A stretch of DNA of 32,000 nt from Haloquadratum walsbyi C23 (GTDB taxonomy: Archaea; Halobacteriota; Halobacteria; Halobacteriales; Haloferacaceae). The stretch lies in assembly GCF_000237865.1 (NCBI RefSeq), contig NC_017459.1, forward strand, positions 720,001 through 752,000, in the 5' to 3' direction. Shown here piece after piece: positions 24,081 to 32,000 of the stretch. Made by a program: the position numbers and the translations under genes. Numbering within the stretch: the first letter of the stretch is position 1; each line of letters starts with the position of its first letter. The notes beneath the pieces were generated by a model. It saw only the letters and a list, made by a program, of their open reading frames with translations, searched no databases and was not told the DNA's origin.

Positions 24081-24272
24081 GCTATTCATACCTTTCATTC
24101 CTTTCACTCAATAGTTGACGTTATCATACGTGTGAGAGCACTCGCCTGTGATCCATCACCTAGCTCTACTACTAACGTGAATATCGAGATACGTACCGAT
24201 GCGTCTCTGTGGTGGTAATTATGATGAGTGGAAAATAAAATCAGAAATTAGAAATCAGGGACAAATATCGTA

Positions 24273-24343
24273 TGCGCCGGCCGGGATTTGAACCCGGGTC
24301 ATGAGCTTGGAAGGCTCAGGTCATACCACTAGACCACCAGCGC
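24273..24343 (-). tRNA. tRNA-Gly (anticodon UCC); no intron and no encoded CCA
   Basis: The minus strand reads GCGCTGG-TG-GTCT-AGTGGTA-TGAC-C-TGAGC-CTTCCAA-GCTCA-TGAC-CCGGG-TTCAAAT-CCCGG-CCGGCGC-A. This gives a 7-bp acceptor stem (one G-U pair), a GG in the D-loop, a TTCAAAT T-loop and anticodon TCC. Confidence 0.93.
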
Positions 24344-24655
24344 ATGCTGCTATGTCACGCCATATGTATGACGTCACAATATTATGAATTAGTGCCTGGA
24401 ATAAGGATGTTTCTGTTTGAGTCTCTTCTCTCGCCACTGTGTGTCACATTTGGACGATCACTTGAGCACGCTTTGATTATCATTTAATTTCGATTTCTTG
24501 ATTTCCTGATTTCTCAGATAGACTTTATTCGTCATCGTCACCGTCACTACGGATAATATCTGTCGTAATAACTGAATCACACCGGTGTCATCTTCAGATA
24601 AAAAAGAAGAATACGACGAAAGTACTGCGCTGTGACAGAGAGCCGACGAATATAG

Positions 24656-25759
24656 CTAGTCGTCGCTTGGTGGTTCGATTGCGTCTGCTTCAGCGTCCAC
24701 TTCAGCAGTAGCATCTGGTGCTGGTGCTTCAATCGGCGGTGCTTGTGCCTCCTCGAATGATGCGGCTGCGTTTTGAACGCGATCACTTACACCTGGAACC
24801 TCTGTTTCTGTGACCGGACCCTCAGCACGGATTTCTTCAAGATCGCGAGGGAATTCACGAAGTTGATAATGGATATCAATTCCTGCTTGCGCGCCTTTGC
24901 CCATCGCAACAGGAATCTGGTTGTGCCCATCAGTAATATCACCGACTGCATACACACCATCAACGGTTGTTTCCATGCTTTCATCGACAATGACCGTTCC
25001 ATCATCGTCGAGTTCACACCCAAGCGTTTCGAATAAGGCGGTATTATAATTTGAGCCATACATCGCGAATCCACCGCGATACTGACGGATACTTCCATCC
25101 TCGAATTCGAATGACTCTAACCATCCATTATCGCTTTTATTCATCCCATCAATATCGGATTCAACAATATCAATTGGATGCGCCCGCAGTTGTTCGTCAG
25201 TTTTATCACTCCATTCTGGCTCATCACCGCGGAGCAACACGTCGACATCATCGGTGAAATTCAGCATAATCATCGCAACATGTGCAGTTGCCTCACCCGT
25301 GCCCATCACATAGACCGGTCGATCAACAAACATGTATGCATCACAGTGCAGACAGTAATGCAGCCCTTTGCCTGTACGTGGCACTGGTGGGTCTGGGTGT
25401 TTATCACTGAATCCAACACCAAGGACAATGCGGTCAGCACGGAATGCATTCGAGCTCCCCTCAAGATAGAACCGACCATCATCAGTCCGTTCAATATCAG
25501 TAATGAGATCACGAATCACATCTCCACCATATGATTCGACTTGTTCAGTCCCAGTCGCAAGGAATTCATTACCCGAGGTATCCTCGGTGACACCGATGAC
25601 ATTGTGAGTATCGAGCATCATTGCTGCACGACCACCACCACGGTCAACAAGTGCAGTGTCATGCCCTAATCGCGTCGTGTACAGTGCCGATTGGAGACCT
25701 GCGGGTCCGCCTCCAACCACGACAACCTCATAATCGGCTACGGTATCAGTGTCGCTCAT
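24656..25759 (-). CDS. thioredoxin-reductase-like FAD-dependent pyridine-nucleotide-disulfide oxidoreductase with an acidic/Ala-Pro C-terminal tail
   Basis: The FAD site is YEVVVVGGGPAGLQSALY, the redox CxxC-D is YCLHCDAY, and the C-terminal FAD motif is VYAVGDITDG. The second dinucleotide site is degenerate (VMGTGEATAH ... VLLRGDEPEW). Confidence 0.85.
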   Translation of the reverse strand: MSDTDTVADYEVVVVGGGPAGLQSALYTTRLGHDTALVDRGGGRAAMMLDTHNVIGVTEDTSGNEFLATGTEQVESYGGDVIRDLITDIERTDDGRFYLEGSSNAFRADRIVLGVGFSDKHPDPPVPRTGKGLHYCLHCDAYMFVDRPVYVMGTGEATAHVAMIMLNFTDDVDVLLRGDEPEWSDKTDEQLRAHPIDIVESDIDGMNKSDNGWLESFEFEDGSIRQYRGGFAMYGSNYNTALFETLGCELDDDGTVIVDESMETTVDGVYAVGDITDGHNQIPVAMGKGAQAGIDIHYQLREFPRDLEEIRAEGPVTETEVPGVSDRVQNAAASFEEAQAPPIEAPAPDATAEVDAEADAIEPPSDD

Positions 25760-25852: not shown

Positions 25853-27451
25853 CTATTCTGATATATCCTCATCGTTTGCTCTGTTATCCACATCATCAAT
25901 AGATTCTGTTCCTGTCTCTGATTCCTCTTTAGCCTCTGAGATGTCATCTTCGACATCATCTGTAAATCTCGGCTTCTCGCTTGAGGAATCTTGACTCTGC
26001 TGTGATGCTTCAGTGGATGATGATATGCTGTCGTGTGAGTGTCCATCATCATCATTAGTATCATTATTTATACTGCTATTGTCCTGATCATGCTCTTCAG
26101 TACTATTTTTTTCAGTATCATTATCGCCACGCCATTGATTCCAGCGTGATCGAATTGAAGTAAATATTCCACTTTCAGCTTCAGTCTCGGCTTCACCCTT
26201 ATCTATATCTTCATCGCTTGTGTCTGGGGTATCTACCGTGCTGACGCTACTATCATCAGACACGTTAGTCGGGATAGTAGTGTTTTCTTGATTCTCGGGT
26301 TCCGGTCGAGAGGGCTGAGGCGGGTCATCATCGGTAGTTTCCTCATCGATGGTGGCTTTATTATATGCGTGTATCGGTGGCCAGCAGACGTAATTATACT
26401 GTTGACCTGGCGTCGTGTAGCAGTCTTGTGTTGGGTCATACAGCACGCGTCCACCGGTGTCTGCGGCGACGTCGACAAGATCAACCAATGTTTGTAGCTC
26501 AACAATGTCACTTCCATCCGGGTCGATTGAGTCCGGGAGTGTTCCATGTGAGAGCCACTCATCGTATACATCTCTTGAGACTGCATCAAGTTCGTCATCT
26601 GTTGGTGCAATTAATCTTCGATATCGCGCAAATCCAAATGACAGAGCAAAGATAACGCCACTCCCAGTGAGTGCTGGCCCACCGATTCGTCTCAGTGCTG
26701 AGTATTCTCGTTGCACTTGAATTGTCTGTGTCCGAGTTGTACTGTTCGTCAGTTCACCGGGATCACTGACTCGAAATGCGTCGCCCTCAGGAATAAGTCG
26801 AAGATCATCAGTGTATTGTCTATCGATCACACGACCGTTTACTTCACCGGTAATCTGCGTGTTTGCGCGCACAATCACAACTGGCTCACCTGGTACATCA
26901 CCAAATGTTTCCTCAACCTGTTCAATTTGGAGACGCGTTTGATTGATGTTAAACTGATACTCAACGGTTGTTGTTGCACCTGGGGTGACATCGGTAACAG
27001 TCGTTTCGCTGAGTGCGCTTGAGGATCCCCAAAGAACTGTTTGATCGCTTCGACCCTGCACAAGTAATTGCAGCTCAGTCTGTACTTCCGTTGATCCTCC
27101 GGAGCTGGCATCATAACTTACATCATACTCTCCTGAGACGACACGTTGGATCCGTGGAAAGTACGCACGCTGTTCAGATAACCGTCTTCCAACATCATAA
27201 ACTGGATTTTCACCTGTCACTGTCGCTCCATGTGCGAATGTCGCTGTTCGTGACCATGTTGAGACCGTCCGCTGCTCTTCGGCTACACCAGGCTCAACAT
27301 GTGTCGTGTAGGTGAGGTATCCGCCGACAGCAGCGATAATTAAAAACAAGAGAATAACGACCGCTGCATTTTCTGCCAGTGTATGACGAATTCGAATTAT
27401 TGAGACAGACTCTTCCTGTCCGTTACTCTCATCTGGCGACTGCTTACTCAC
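25853..27451 (-). CDS. two-TM membrane protein (DUF5305-like by recollection) with an extracytoplasmic beta-rich domain, a cytoplasmic domain and a roughly 165-aa acidic disordered tail
   Basis: The GTG start (27449-27451) overlaps the stop of the upstream signal peptidase (TGA 27448-27450). TM1 is AAVVILLFLIIAAVGGYLTY and TM2 is IGGPALTGSGVIFALSFGFA followed by RYRR. The tail is encoded at 25853 to about 26350. Confidence 0.7.
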   Translation of the reverse strand: MSKQSPDESNGQEESVSIIRIRHTLAENAAVVILLFLIIAAVGGYLTYTTHVEPGVAEEQRTVSTWSRTATFAHGATVTGENPVYDVGRRLSEQRAYFPRIQRVVSGEYDVSYDASSGGSTEVQTELQLLVQGRSDQTVLWGSSSALSETTVTDVTPGATTTVEYQFNINQTRLQIEQVEETFGDVPGEPVVIVRANTQITGEVNGRVIDRQYTDDLRLIPEGDAFRVSDPGELTNSTTRTQTIQVQREYSALRRIGGPALTGSGVIFALSFGFARYRRLIAPTDDELDAVSRDVYDEWLSHGTLPDSIDPDGSDIVELQTLVDLVDVAADTGGRVLYDPTQDCYTTPGQQYNYVCWPPIHAYNKATIDEETTDDDPPQPSRPEPENQENTTIPTNVSDDSSVSTVDTPDTSDEDIDKGEAETEAESGIFTSIRSRWNQWRGDNDTEKNSTEEHDQDNSSINNDTNDDDGHSHDSISSSTEASQQSQDSSSEKPRFTDDVEDDISEAKEESETGTESIDDVDNRANDEDISE

Positions 27452-28566
27452 CGTCGTCCTCCAAGTTGCTCAAAGATTCCATTCTGTGCGCCTGCTCGAT
27501 CACGGAGCCGTCGCCTGCCGGTAAATAACTGTGCAGCGGCGAGAGTTGGAATGGCAAGCAATGTATCAATCAGTACAACGGGAGCGAGTGGATGAATTGC
27601 GTACATAGATTCAATAACTGTTACTGGAAGCACAAGCGGGAATCGCTTTTCTGAGACATATCGTCGATACGAACCGGTATCTGGAGGCACAGAGAGGCGT
27701 ACAGTTGCATTTGTTACATTCCCAGGAGTGACGACACCAGACCCATTCTTCACCGCAACACCGTCGCTAGCTGGTTCGACATAGTATTTGATCGGAACGA
27801 ATGAACCCCCGGGAACCTGATATGTTGTTGACTCTGACTCACCAGCGGGAATCACACCTGGTCCAGGAAGGTTTGATTGTGCGCTCACAACTCGATACTC
27901 TGTTGGTCCGAGTGGAAAAAGCATACTTGCAGTGGCAGCAAGAATCACAATCCCGCCGGTAAGGAGTACGATTCGCTTTGGAGTTAACAGCGGTGTATCG
28001 CTGTTGTGTCCTGCATCCCGGTCAGTGACGTTAGTACGCCCGCGTGGACCTGCATCCTCGTCAGTAAGCGCTAGAATAACAACGAGAGTGACCGCACCAC
28101 CGATTACAAATCGTCGCGGGACAATCCTCAACAATTGTTGAATTGCATCACGAATCAGTATGACCCCCGTGCCAAGTTCAGGAAGCATTACGACCGTTCC
28201 GCCTAATTGAAGCACAACAGCGACGATTTGTGGCGACTTGACGGGGGGTTCCCCACCTGATTGATCTGTGAAGGGATTTGCATCACCTTGCGTGATATAG
28301 CCGCGAGCTGTCTCGTCAACAATCCGGTGGGTCGTCAGACCACCGCCATTCACCTGTTGTGCACGATACACAACAACATCACCGACATTTGGTTGTCCAG
28401 CGACCGATGGGGGAATCGCGATGAATCCATCACCCGGTGCGAGTGCTGGTTGCATACTGCCCGTCCGAACAAACCCGAGTAATAGCGGTTGATCAATAAT
28501 TTGTCCAGCTAATAGCAGTGCTAAAATACCGATTACGCCGAGTTCAAACCAGCGGTCAACATTCAT
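27448..28566 (-). CDS. S26-family signal peptidase I of the archaeal/ER (Sec11/SipW) type, long form with three extra TM segments and an extra extracytoplasmic domain
   Basis: An N-terminal TM is followed by the catalytic boxes TGSMQPAL (Ser), GDVVVY, LTTHRIV (His) and ITQGDANPFTD. A further roughly 220 aa C-terminal extension follows. The upstream 52 nt are A/T-rich (TTTTATTTCTATACT on the coding strand), so the gene probably has its own promoter. Confidence 0.85.
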   Translation of the reverse strand: MNVDRWFELGVIGILALLLAGQIIDQPLLLGFVRTGSMQPALAPGDGFIAIPPSVAGQPNVGDVVVYRAQQVNGGGLTTHRIVDETARGYITQGDANPFTDQSGGEPPVKSPQIVAVVLQLGGTVVMLPELGTGVILIRDAIQQLLRIVPRRFVIGGAVTLVVILALTDEDAGPRGRTNVTDRDAGHNSDTPLLTPKRIVLLTGGIVILAATASMLFPLGPTEYRVVSAQSNLPGPGVIPAGESESTTYQVPGGSFVPIKYYVEPASDGVAVKNGSGVVTPGNVTNATVRLSVPPDTGSYRRYVSEKRFPLVLPVTVIESMYAIHPLAPVVLIDTLLAIPTLAAAQLFTGRRRLRDRAGAQNGIFEQLGGRR

Positions 28567-28618
28567 CTGCTATTTTGATATTGAGTATAGAAATAAAACA
28601 TAATAATATTCATATCAC

Positions 28619-31600
28619 TCATGATGACCGTCGATGAAAGACGAGAGCGGCTATCAGTACTGCGAGGACCGCCACCATCACGCCAAATCCAGGTATGCCA
28701 CCCGGTGTTGAGGTTGGTGTCTCTGTCTCCGTTGTAGTTGGTGTCTCATCAGGTGCTGGCGTCGGCGTTTGTGTTGGTGTCGGCGTTGGCGTCGGCGTTG
28801 GTGTCACTTGCTGTCCTGGTTTTGGCACCGTCACTGCAAATACCGAGAAGCCAGGTGTGTTTGCCTCAAGAACGACCTCATCTGCGGTCACGTCTGCAAC
28901 ACTCGTTTGAAGCACCGTATACTGTCCATTATCAAATCGCTCAACCTGTAAATCGCCTGGTGCTGCCCGGGTATCTTGGACGAGATCTCGGTCAACAGCA
29001 ATTCTCACCGTTGCTGGTTGGTTTTCAGCAGCATCAGGTACAGTCACATCAACTGCGGTGAGCGGAGTTGCTCGCTGCTGTGGATAATTTGTGTCCGCAG
29101 GTGGATCATCGAGTGCAGTAACACTGACAGTGCCGACCGCTTGCTGGTTGAAGTCGATGCCGACCGACCGCACTTGATCATTTTTCTGCCCAATATCAGT
29201 GATAGACACAGTCTGTGAGACTGCTTGGCGTTGAACACCTCCAAGTTGATTTGGATTTGCCAATCCAGAGACGCCGAATCCACCTCCGCCTCCGCCACCA
29301 CCGCCGGCAGCGTCGTCATCATCATCCTCAGGCGGTTCAGGAGCGGCATTGACATCAACTGTATCACTTCTTGTTGCGCCGCTGTCGGTGGCGACAACAG
29401 TAACAGAAACATCGTCTGAATCCGCAAGTGATGCTTGTGGGCTGTGAGTCAATGTAACTGAACTAGTTCCCTGCCCTGGCACGGACACGCCAGTCTCAGT
29501 GGCAACCGGTCGCCCATTGAAATCTAACCGGACATCTGTCGTCCCATCTGATTGACCACTGTTATTTATTGTTGCATCGACCGAGAGCGTTTGATCGGTT
29601 CGCACACTATTGCCGACATTGATGCTCTCAACACCAATCGACGGTGGTGTCTGAGCATTCACATTGTTTGGACTCACCACGTTGTTTTCTGTTCTCACAG
29701 TAAGACTTAGGGAACTCCCAGCGTCAGCGGGTTCTACTTGATACTCTAGGGTGTCCAATTGAGCGAATGACGCAGTGTCTACTGTTCCATTTTCGCCGAG
29801 TTGGAACTGCGCTGTCTCATCCTCCTTTTGTCCGTCAACGAATAGCTCTATTCGCTGATTATTCGTTGCACCGCTCGTTCCGCCCGTGTTCTCAACAGCA
29901 ACATCGACGGAGATTGTCTCTCCAACAGTGACCGGATCACTGACACTCGTACTCCCTGTTGGACTTGTGATCTCATAATCTGCGGGTATCTTTGGGTTCC
30001 CCCTGAACGGCTGAACTGTCACTGGCGATAGGATCTCACTAGACAGCGGACCGGATGGTCGACCCCACCAATTTTCAGTTGCATCAACCGTTGTCACGGC
30101 GCCGCCAGGGCGGTCAGCATCAATAGCGACATTATTATTCTCAATATTACTCTGCGTGAAAGCGTGCTTTCCGGTGTTGGTAAAGAAGCCATTCTCGCTT
30201 CGAAGGACATTCAGCCGTTCTGCGGTCAGATTTGATGCGTCGCCTGTTGCGTTGATCGCGAATGTGGTATCAGCAATCTGTGTGTCAAGCACACTGACAT
30301 CAGCGGTTGTCACGTTTATGCCTTCTCTGACTGACTGAATCTGACTGAAACTCACAGTGACATCGTCAGCATTGATATCAATACCAGTCGTTGTTTGACC
30401 AGTTGCGTTGTCAATCTGCACATCAGTGATGGTTGACGTCTCCACAGCTTGCACTGCAGTTGAGGAGCCTCTGACAGTCAAACTGTCAATGAGTGTACCG
30501 CCGGCGCCGGCAGATATATCGACGGTTGCATCACTACTACTGCCCTCAGGAGCAGTGACAACTGCTCCATCACTTCGAATGGCGACTTCTTTATCAATGC
30601 TCAATGTTTCCCGATAGGTTTCTGCTGCAACTTGGACGGAGCCACCTGTGTCGGCGGCGTTGATCCCACTCGTGATCGTCCCGAAGTCGGTTTCTGTGCG
30701 TGTCGATGTTGTTTGGTTTGCTGAGGTCGCGGTGAGTTCGGTTGTGAAGTTACCTGCTCGGGATTCACCAGTTACATCGAGTGATAATGTCTCAGTTGTA
30801 CTCCCACCAGGATCAAGGGTTACCTGTTGTGCTGTTGTGTCAATCGTCTCGTCATCAAGAGTGAGATTGAGTTCAATTGTCTGTGTTGCTGTGCCCTGAC
30901 CGGTGTTCTCGACAGCAATATCAACTTCGTCGGATGTTGCACTCCCTGCGATTGGTGTTGGGATGTTCGAAATATCAACAGTGAACCGTGGCGGTGCTGG
31001 TTCGCGGACGACAATTAATCCCGAGACGCTGTCGTCTGCACTGCTGACAGTCACCGCCCGATCACCGACAAGAAGCGCAGTCGCCGGCACAGTAGTCGAC
31101 ACCGTCTGTGTCTCATTCCCATCGAGCGTGACATCTGATGTCGAACGAGTCGTTCCACCGATGGTTATCGACACTGTTTGTGATCCTTCAACATCTCCGA
31201 TATTGGTGACATCTGCGGTGACAGTTACTGACTGACCCTCGCTTCGGAATACATCGTCGGGTACAGACAGATTTGACATGCGGAATAGTGGCTCATCCGG
31301 TGCCTCAATAACTGTGACTGTTCGTTGCGCTGTCTCATCACCGGTCGTAACTGTGATTGTCTGATCACCAACTGTACTCACAGTCGCTTCGAGGGTTATT
31401 TCGGCACGTTCGCCGCCGTCAAGTGTTAGTTGTCTACTCGTCGCTTCATCGTCATTCACTTCGAGTGCAACCTCTCGGTCAGTTGCTGTACCATCACCCG
31501 TATTCTCGACAATGGTATCCACCTGTAGTCTGTTCCCTTCTATGACTGGTGAGTTTGTATCATCAATCTGCACCGCGATATTGGCTGGTTCGCGGATTGT

Positions 31601-32000
31601 CGTAGATGCTTCTTGCGCGTCATTATCTGTGTTTACTCTGAGCTGTTGTGTCCCAGCATCAATAATTTCGCCCGCTCCTGTTGGCGCAGTTAATGTCACC
31701 GTTTCAGTACTACCGCCAATCACTTGCACGGATTGCTGTGTAAGGTCTTGTCCATCAGCAGAGAGTACAATATCTTGCGTTGCTGTCCACCCCCCCAGTG
31801 TTTGTGATAGTGATATCAACACTGAGGTCGTTTCCAGCAATAGGACCAGGATTACTCGGACTCGGTGTCACACTGTCGATGCTAAATGTCGCAGGCTCTC
31901 GCAGATCAATTGACTTCTGCTCAGTATCACTGTATGTTTGCAGCGTTGTACTCTGACCTCCGGCTGCTAGCGTATTGATTGATGTTTCAAACGTAAGCGT
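28619..32000 (-). CDS. very large PGF-CTERM-anchored surface protein (six CARDB-like repeats, a central right-handed beta-helix, a PGF-pre-PGF-like domain and a Thr/Pro linker). It is interrupted by a +1 frameshift at 31790-31796, and the N-terminus lies beyond the window.
   Basis: The C-terminus reads TPTPTPTPTPTQTPTPAPDETPTTTETETPTSTPGGIPGFGVMVAVLAVLIAALVFHRRSS. The beta-helix runs ITSGINAADTGGSVQV...ATENWWGRPSGP (about 30050-30690). The repeats have the pattern REPA..F.V....P..G....V.V.NTG.GTAT. The tracked ORF starts at a TTG (31838-31840) with no signal peptide. The same repeat pattern continues upstream in another frame (32000-31758: ...REPATFSIDSVTPSPSNPGPIAGNDLSVDITITNTGG). Confidence 0.85.
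31790..31796 (-). repeat. C7 (G7 on the coding strand) homopolymer that coincides with the reading-frame break of the surface-protein gene
   Basis: Counted directly: ...gtccaCCCCCCCagtg... The upstream frame ends at TGA 31755-31757, and the downstream frame has a stop at 31868-31870. A G6 or G9 tract would fuse the frames as ...ITNTGG(G)WTATQDIVLSADGQ... Confidence 0.9.

Follow-up and report, generated by a model that had tools for sequence, protein, structure and literature searches.

We analysed a 32,000-nucleotide (nt) stretch of the Haloquadratum walsbyi C23 chromosome (NC_017459.1, forward-strand positions 720,001 to 752,000; hereafter, the window) and found at its far end three co-directional minus-strand genes that probably represent the 3′ end of a twin-arginine translocation (Tat)-fimbriae, or taf, type cluster, with a TafD-type gene, a TafG-type gene, and an enlarged TafF-type anchor. 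In window numbering, these are a tafG-like gene for a DUF5305 membrane protein of 532 amino acids (aa) at 25853–27451, a tafD-like gene for a 372-aa signal peptidase of the endoplasmic reticulum (ER) type (Sec11/SipW class) at 27448–28566, and, at 28619–31840 with a TTG start, the C-terminal 1073 codons of a disrupted giant gene for a TafF-like anchor/adhesin. The first two products are exact matches to C23 proteins CCC39637 (DUF5305 family protein) and CCC39638 (“Peptidase S26 domain protein”), and the third belongs to the same gene as CCC39639 (“probable secreted glycoprotein”). An earlier reading of the DNA alone (the sequence-only reading) had recognized three such co-directional open reading frames (ORFs) and had proposed a dedicated maturation or display system for one huge adhesin, with no function yet assigned to it. 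The layout stands, as does, in broad terms, the dedicated peptidase beside its cargo; the system, however, is already known, and the large protein is best read as a TafF-type anchor subunit of a fibre, secondarily enlarged.

The Tat-fimbriae (tafi) system was first described between 2023 and 2025: in 2023 and 2025 for Haloarcula hispanica, which has a tafA–tafG cluster (PMC11821415), and in 2025 for Natrinema sp. J7-2, where Tafi is a bundling pilus (PMC12337348). TafD, a signal peptidase, has four transmembrane segments along with two external domains, and when tafD is deleted, TafA is not processed and fimbriae do not form; its proposed helper, TafG, is a DUF5305 protein (PMC11821415; PMC12337348). 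TafA, TafE, and TafC are Tat-exported donor-strand pilins, and TafF is Sec-exported, combining an N-domain like that of TafA with a membrane anchor at the C terminus; other haloarchaea carry adjacent, duplicated tafD/tafG pairs (PMC11821415; PMC12337348). In architecture and in gene neighbourhood, the pair in the window corresponds to TafD and TafG, contrary to the statement that no function had been assigned.

The locus reveals no new kind of system. What is new is that H. walsbyi has a taf-type locus, that its TafF-type protein is a fused giant with a PGF-CTERM end, and that a TafE-like domain is joined to a beta-helix in this clade. A Tat-fimbriae-type locus is thereby placed in the dominant archaeon of salt-saturated brines, and taf-type structural genes appear able to expand into very large, variable adhesins with the processing pair nearly unchanged. 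An enlarged TafF-type protein carrying PGF-CTERM suggests a link between fimbria anchoring and archaeosortase. For annotation, CCC39638 could become TafD-like and CCC39637 TafG-like, and the entry for CCC39639 should state that it covers part of a disrupted gene.

The signal peptidase, its DUF5305 partner, and their conserved neighbours

The 372-aa protein has the catalytic motifs GSMQP (S37, nt 28447–28461), THRIV (H80/R81, nt 28318–28332), and GDANPFTDQ (nt 28261–28287), and GSMxP, HR, and GDANPFTDQ are invariant across 27 peptidase homologues. Serine and histidine lie 43 residues apart, as they do in TafD (Ser-40/His-83/Arg-84). When the family profile was compared with the Protein Data Bank (PDB), human SEC11A was matched with the catalytic motifs aligned (E 6e-5). 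The ER-type motifs and the SEC11A alignment bear out the Sec11/SipW-type label of the sequence-only reading, but the scores fall under the cutoffs of the curated models: 43.8 against 51.85 for the archaeal signal peptidase I equivalog TIGR02228, 13.9 against 22.9 for Pfam S26, and 21.1 against 190 for the SipW equivalog NF046067.

An AlphaFold model of the peptidase has helices at residues 2–23, 131–171, 196–216, and 328–349, corresponding to four membrane passes, and a second extracytoplasmic beta-sandwich at aa 222–310 (nt 27637–27903) with a predicted local distance difference test score (pLDDT) of ∼90; the N-terminal domain was poorly modelled. Four transmembrane segments and two external domains, the C-terminal one immunoglobulin (Ig)-like, are what has been described for TafD; the Ser/His catalytic domain of the window peptidase is likewise placed outside the membrane. 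The best Foldseek matches of the sandwich were MSP/VAP and PapD-like/ASH Ig-like folds (E 6e-4 to 1e-2); they were weak, with template-modelling scores of ∼0.4–0.5 on the target, and the chaperone-usher chaperone CupB2 appeared at rank 33. Speculatively, this weak MSP/PapD-like resemblance might hint at a chaperone-like role. Homologues from the Haloarcula clade share 43–46% identity with the window peptidase in the best matching segment. On an environmental H. walsbyi contig (L007), the peptidase differs from that of the window at 5 of 372 residues and the adhesin is just 89% identical, a pattern that would fit conserved enzymes with variable structural subunits.

The partner matches PF17231 (DUF5305) at aa 141–347 (nt 26411–27031; E 1e-36, 126.9 bits against a cutoff of 29) and has an N-terminal transmembrane segment at about aa 21–50 and a second hydrophobic stretch at about aa 255–280; the DUF5305-like membrane partner recognized earlier is, thus, far above the gathering score. 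Its last 182 residues (aa 351–532, nt 25856–26401) form an acidic, Ser/Thr-rich tail with 29% Asp plus Glu that is absent from the ∼360–400-aa DUF5305 homologues of other genera. Environmental H. walsbyi alleles of this protein are 516–532 aa in total, with small insertions and deletions in the tail. The GTG start of the tafG-like gene at 27451 overlaps the TGA stop of the tafD-like gene, giving GTGA on the minus strand (27451–27448), and the same 4-nt overlap occurs in five environmental H. walsbyi contigs (L001–L004 and L007) and in the Halorubrum loci L008, L010, and L086. The overlap suggests that the two genes may be translationally coupled.

We then examined the surroundings of related peptidases. 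A scan of genome contigs returned 435 loci encoding peptidase relatives, of which the best 80 were kept; all of their ORFs were listed and clustered, and a pilin hidden Markov model (HMM) was built from 80 small pilin-like neighbours. Counts were made on the 51 loci, spread across Halobacteria, whose flanks reached at least 6 kb on the upstream side of the peptidase and at least 3 kb on the downstream side. All 51 had a pilin-domain ORF, and 50 had at least two; a pilin-domain ORF with a twin-arginine (RR) motif was found in 47. A DUF5305 gene lay somewhere in the locus in 47 of the 51 and directly downstream and co-directional in 38, which agrees with the genetic coupling of peptidase and partner that had been proposed. 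A gene for a DUF7344 TafB-like protein accompanied 27. The small pilins, and the N terminus of a 761-aa protein of Halorubrum sp. PV6, match NF052522 (TafE; E 7e-14 to 1e-22), NF052520 (TafA), and NF052521 (TafC), and sampled anchor-like neighbours match NF052523 (TafF) up to E 1e-16, all at scores under the equivalog cutoffs. The relatives share a conserved putative cleavage-site motif, GT(G/E)A↓F, consistent with the start of mature TafA at Phe-30. The peptidase, with its extra domain, extra transmembrane segments, and synteny with DUF5305 and pilin genes, is a specialized long-form ER-type enzyme rather than a stand-alone housekeeping gene, as had been supposed.

The giant anchor gene and its full-length environmental allele

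The first 415 residues of the full-length giant are encoded beyond position 32000, outside the window; the context upstream of that point was taken from an environmental contig of 10.2 kb (L089) and not from the C23 chromosome. Over the large gene, this contig shares ∼98% identity with the window, and it encodes a protein, P0165, of 1751 aa, or 1824 codons once extended N-terminally to the preceding stop. The extended N terminus, LRNNRSIYLIVVVLLSVAVLSGLPSGTQA↓IDIGEGIQISAADSPNGKYV…, comprises a Sec-like signal followed by a pilin-like domain, and the pilin HMM matches the full-length giant at aa 42–169 (E 9e-14). Residues 27–415 align to the whole ectodomain of 519–537-aa TafF-like proteins whose genes directly precede that of the peptidase in loci of Halorubrum spp. 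(L006, L008, and L010) and of Halobellus (L009), with 37–39% identity and E values of 1e-51 to 1e-61. These relatives have a signal peptide, a pilin-like domain, a PKD domain, a PGF-pre-PGF domain, an acidic/Gly linker, and a transmembrane anchor. Since the alignment spans their whole ectodomain, the H. walsbyi giant looks like a TafF-type anchor enlarged ∼3.4-fold. The intact environmental allele combines a Sec-like signal and a pilin-like domain at the N terminus with a membrane anchor at the C terminus, all encoded in a taf-type locus, which is the architecture of TafF.

The N-terminal TafF-like part of the giant also includes a PKD-like stretch and a first PGF-pre-PGF domain. Added to it are ∼1,200 residues of CARDB repeats and probable beta-helix and then a second PGF-pre-PGF domain, and PGF-CTERM replaces the plain transmembrane anchor. 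The portion inside the window carries most of what the sequence-only reading had listed. CARDB (PF07705) is matched over three stretches (45.4 bits against a cutoff of 22.7), and a count by NTG/NIG/NSG motifs gives six CARDB-like units, the one spanning the break in the gene included. Numbered within the 1073-aa part, the end of this break-spanning unit is followed by units starting at aa 83, 179, and 279 and two later ones at about aa 620 and 731. The D5-A2-G9 hinge lies at aa 839–854, PGF-pre-PGF (TIGR04213) at aa 889–1004 (32.8 against a cutoff of 28), and PGF-CTERM (TIGR04126) at aa 1045–1071 (29.5 against 24.5); the Thr/Pro linker begins at aa 1013.

The central beta-helix had also been proposed, and here the outcome was mixed. 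Its motif ATENWWGRPSGP is present at aa 587–598, at the end of the probable beta-helix region (aa 384–598), but profiles, model, and Foldseek support the fold weakly. Pfam Beta_helix has no match in the large protein, and NosD reaches E 0.034. An hhalign comparison of adhesin aa 370–650 with the beta-helices of neighbouring proteins was negative, and a PDB sequence search with the probable beta-helix segment returned nothing useful. AlphaFold modelled the segment with a pLDDT of 50; the top 50 Foldseek matches were nearly all right-handed beta-helix enzymes and tailspikes, at E values of 0.16 or above. A beta-helix at aa 384–598 is plausible but unproven.

The next gene upstream on the 10.2-kb contig is partial (at least 673 aa) and shares 60% identity (E 5e-157) with the 761-aa protein of Halorubrum PV6, which has a Tat signal, a TafE match (NF052522, E 1e-22), and a Pfam Beta_helix domain. 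By sequence comparison, the upstream gene is the orthologue of this fusion of a Tat-signal TafE-like pilin domain to a beta-helix.

Two further observations concern the giant gene in environmental populations. Between the stop codon TAG (2064–2066) and the signal-like sequence on contig L089 (2064–2290), there is no ATG, GTG, or TTG; the ORF opens with CTG AGA AAT AAT CGC (LRNNR…), which implies either a noncanonical CTG start or another inactivating change. In addition, most H. walsbyi assemblies with the peptidase break inside the giant gene, with contigs of 2–5 kb in 90 of 103 index blocks. Judged from the metagenome contigs L001–L005, L007, and L088–L093, the gene looks like a population-level variable hotspot.

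A one-nucleotide insertion in the C23 sequence

The giant gene does not run as a single ORF from 28619 to beyond 32000, as the sequence-only reading had it; a 1-nt insertion, which that reading overlooked, splits it. The frame that enters from position 32000 is the 3′ end of the N-terminal part of the same gene (31755–32000, minus strand) and stops at 31755–31757, and the 1073-aa ORF lies in the +1 frame. The upstream frame encodes a CARDB-like repeat, collinear with about aa 670–750 of P0165, and then 12 out-of-frame codons before the stop. The extra G (on the minus strand) is at 31787/31788, right after a G7 tract at 31790–31796 and following the next T, so that the site as a whole occupies 31787–31796. 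The window reads ACTGGGGGGGTGGACAGC where the environmental H. walsbyi contigs L088 and L093 read ACTGGGGGGGTGACAGC. L088 shares 97.8% identity with the window; the extra base is missing from L089 too, both L088 and L089 translate through the site (…ITNTGGVTATQDIVL…), and L093 has the L088 nucleotide string there. A protein-guided metagenome scan had yielded one contig, reaching just 240 nt past the window edge, and an exact-pattern metagenome scan across the G-run gave no match.

The lesion is, thus, a 1-nt insertion next to the G7 tract and not a change in tract length. Slippage or phase variation at the tract was rejected, the tract being equally long in broken and intact alleles, and programmed ribosomal frameshifting was considered and had no supporting evidence. 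The public gene models begin past the break, and neither has a signal peptide: GenBank CCC39639 has 1036 aa and starts at 31729, and RefSeq WP_049891601, from the same gene, has 1067 aa and starts at 31822. As the C23 sequence stands, no anchored form can be produced: the N-terminal fragment would leave the cell unanchored, and the C-terminal one would fail to be exported. Both processing genes, tafD-like and tafG-like, are intact.

An error of sequencing or assembly, with the gene intact in living C23, would account for the extra G as well, and although it deserves serious thought, we consider it doubtful. The base directly adjoins the G7 homopolymer, and all three environmental contigs examined lack it. 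Against an error, the window, L088, and L093 do not differ in tract length, and the G comes after the next T, which is no classic homopolymer miscall; moreover, the GenBank and RefSeq annotators both modelled a truncated protein. C23 has been reported to carry 337 pseudogenes (PMC3119063), and since real disruptions are common in this genome, a real disruption of the anchor gene is credible.

Weighing the assignment against other readings and known systems

Several points weigh against placing the locus in a taf-type cluster. The TafD and TafG assignments are putative, made from architecture and neighbourhood, with Har. hispanica HAH_0243/HAH_0237 and the Natrinema proteins compared by description only, and NCBIfam returned neither a TafD nor a TafG model for the window proteins, nor for a Haloarcula peptidase/DUF5305 pair. 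The tafD-like and tafG-like genes of H. walsbyi are adjacent with a 4-nt overlap, whereas the Har. hispanica pair flanks its cluster. The pilin HMM found no pilin-domain ORF in all 32 kb of the window, and the link of H. walsbyi to pilin genes is drawn from L089 and from relatives. As noted above, every Taf-model match among sampled neighbours is under its equivalog cutoff. The TafF assignment of the giant is transitive and, hence, provisional, passing through the relatives’ proteins: NF052523 scores 28–29 bits on the closest relatives (L006 and L009) and 61 on Haloarcula rara (L013) against a cutoff of 420, and it has no match to the N terminus of the full-length giant even at E ≤ 10. The anchor gene is frameshifted in C23, and to our knowledge, no fimbriae have been reported for H. 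walsbyi.

On the other side stand the likenesses. The locus shares with tafi a long-form S26 peptidase with four transmembrane segments and a second external Ig-like domain (TafD), a DUF5305 partner (TafG), and, in the full-length H. walsbyi allele, a Sec-signal anchor with an N-terminal pilin-like domain and a C-terminal transmembrane segment (TafF). Genes for Tat-signal pilin-domain proteins share the locus (in H. walsbyi, on L089), and many relatives have a DUF7344 TafB-like regulator. Other differences from the described clusters concern the structural genes and TafG. The H. walsbyi TafF-like protein has ∼1,800 aa with CARDB, a probable beta-helix, two PGF-pre-PGF domains, and PGF-CTERM; the TafF-like proteins of the closest relatives have ∼530 aa and a plain transmembrane anchor, and the Har. 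hispanica TafF has three C-terminal transmembrane segments. Fusion of the Tat pilin domain to a beta-helix is seen in this clade, whereas TafC has a laminin-G-like domain. Finally, the H. walsbyi TafG-like protein carries its acidic tail of 180 aa, and the anchor gene of C23 is the frameshifted one.

A stand-alone maturation and display arrangement, in which the peptidase/DUF5305 pair processes the one giant PGF-CTERM adhesin and no fibre is formed, would explain why the giant gene and the peptidase gene are adjacent, 52 nt apart; the Sec-type signal peptide of the full-length giant needs some signal peptidase, and both PGF-pre-PGF and PGF-CTERM score over their cutoffs. We judge this arrangement quite unlikely. 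The sequence-only reading had made one huge adhesin the defining cargo, and that claim did not survive the census: the pair is consistently accompanied by pilin-domain proteins, at every one of the 51 loci, and among the loci examined, a giant PGF-CTERM neighbour is found in H. walsbyi alone. Pilin-domain proteins adjoining the pair in the other genome loci have at most 869 aa, and none has a PGF C terminus. What remains of the claim is that the peptidase sits beside genes for secreted surface proteins. The first 415 aa of the giant are, moreover, a TafF-like module with a pilin-like domain, and the tafD-like and tafG-like genes are intact and highly conserved despite the broken giant gene in C23.

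Haloferax volcanii carries out secretion with Sec11a and Sec11b. That the 372-aa protein might be a general (housekeeping) signal peptidase with coincidental neighbours is highly improbable: it shares the S26 ER-type core GSMxP, HR, and GDxN with Sec11a/Sec11b, its catalytic motifs are intact, and TIGR02228 matches weakly, but the score of 43.8 is under the 51.85 cutoff, the chain is about twice as long as Sec11a/Sec11b, the C-terminal beta-sandwich and extra transmembrane segments are absent from the ∼180–210-aa Sec11 chains of the PDB search, the synteny with DUF5305 and pilin genes is strict, and Hfx. volcanii has no taf genes (PMC11821415).

We return to the taf-type assignment and to how such a system would work. 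Beyond the observed gene identities, domain content, locus conservation, and frameshift, we infer by analogy fibre formation in H. walsbyi, the substrate specificity of its TafD-like peptidase, and the role of PGF-CTERM. Subunits would be exported via Tat or Sec, as in Har. hispanica, and the TafD-like enzyme, aided by its TafG-like partner, would cut their signal peptides at a site of the GT(G/E)A↓F type. The freed N-terminal strands would then join subunits through donor-strand complementation, and the pilin-like N-terminal domain of the giant could accept such a strand. The TafF-type protein would tether the fibre to the cell, in H. walsbyi probably by archaeosortase-dependent lipid anchoring, and the giant would also display adhesin modules. 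A bolder proposal is that the fimbria anchor of H. walsbyi has merged with a large PGF-CTERM adhesin and, separately, that the C-terminal MSP/PapD-like domain of TafD is a built-in chaperone holding subunits until donor-strand exchange. We think this unlikely; if true, one protein would join two surface-display routes, donor-strand fibre assembly and archaeosortase lipid anchoring, and the membrane-tethered TafD domain would correspond in archaea to the PapD chaperone, with no usher involved.

Three other systems invite comparison. The Bacillus subtilis tapA-sipW-tasA operon, to which the sequence-only reading had likened the three genes and which is compared in the tafi paper too (PMC11821415), likewise has an ER-type peptidase gene beside those of fibre subunits, donor-strand complementation, and an accessory nucleator/anchor. 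The parallel holds for the logic of a dedicated peptidase beside its cargo, but does not extend to the SipW and TasA models. SipW lacks both a DUF5305 partner and a second Ig-like domain, export of the H. walsbyi type is partly by Tat, and no TasA/camelysin (Peptidase_M73) domain reaches threshold; a sub-threshold trace (17 against 22.5, E 0.0056) lies in the part outside the window. The DUF1102 clusters of Thermococcales and Archaeoglobales, grouped here with archaeal bundling pili, have a TafD-like and DUF5305 pair beside small donor-strand pilins (PMC11821415); by description, they differ in having Sec-signal DUF1102 pilins and no membrane-anchored TafF analogues. As in PGF-CTERM/archaeosortase A (ArtA) substrates, the C-terminal end of the large protein consists of PGF-pre-PGF, then a Thr/Pro linker, then PGF-CTERM, with both models over their cutoffs, but PGF-CTERM is no normal feature of TafF-like proteins in the sampled loci. 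No archaeosortase gene turned up near the cluster in general scans, none of which searched the window for archaeosortase specifically.

Within the window, whose base composition is ∼48% G+C, an AT-rich spacer of 52 nt separates the large gene from the tafD-like gene (28567–28618, GTGATATGAATATTATTATGTTTTATTTCTATACTCAATATCAAAATAGCAG on the minus strand). A T-rich, TATA-like stretch of the spacer lies ∼27–34 nt ahead of the peptidase ATG, and the spacer, by inference only, may serve as a promoter or terminator; a bacterial-type promoter/terminator scan was uninformative, with nothing above background. The genes 3′ of the tafG-like gene are unrelated housekeeping genes, and a tRNA-Gly(TCC) gene (24272–24344, minus strand) lies 1.5 kb downstream of the cluster, past a thioredoxin-reductase-like gene (24656–25759).

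The related loci provided additional observations. In 11 of the 51, a protein of 270–300 aa with seven to eight transmembrane segments is encoded between the TafF-like gene and the peptidase (for example, L013 8975–9880, L008 6712–7566, L010 7169–7987, and L027 9014–9889). This protein family (cluster c4) has rhomboid-like motifs (FVH..xHL..N, G[AF]SG, and H.LG...G) and no Pfam match at E ≤ 0.01; its gene is outside the tafA–tafG set of Har. hispanica and absent from the H. walsbyi window. The protein might release anchored fibres. A second peptidase paralogue directly follows the pair in Halorubrum GN11 (L010 10499–11683). Two long ORFs, one of 710 aa for a peptidase (L033 2–2134) and one of 781 aa for a DUF5305 protein (L074), may be fusions or extended forms; peptidase–DUF5305 fusion proteins are mentioned in the tafi paper (PMC11821415). 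Lastly, the pair of Halorubrum sp. PV6 (CP030064.1; L006 10001–12203), which contains the closest named homologues, has 52–55% G+C and a third-codon-position G+C (GC3) of 0.46–0.49 in surroundings of 65–70% G+C, and a second low-GC stretch lies at 2–5 kb of the same locus. This composition suggests that the PV6 pair was recently acquired by horizontal transfer from a low-GC haloarchaeon such as Haloquadratum.

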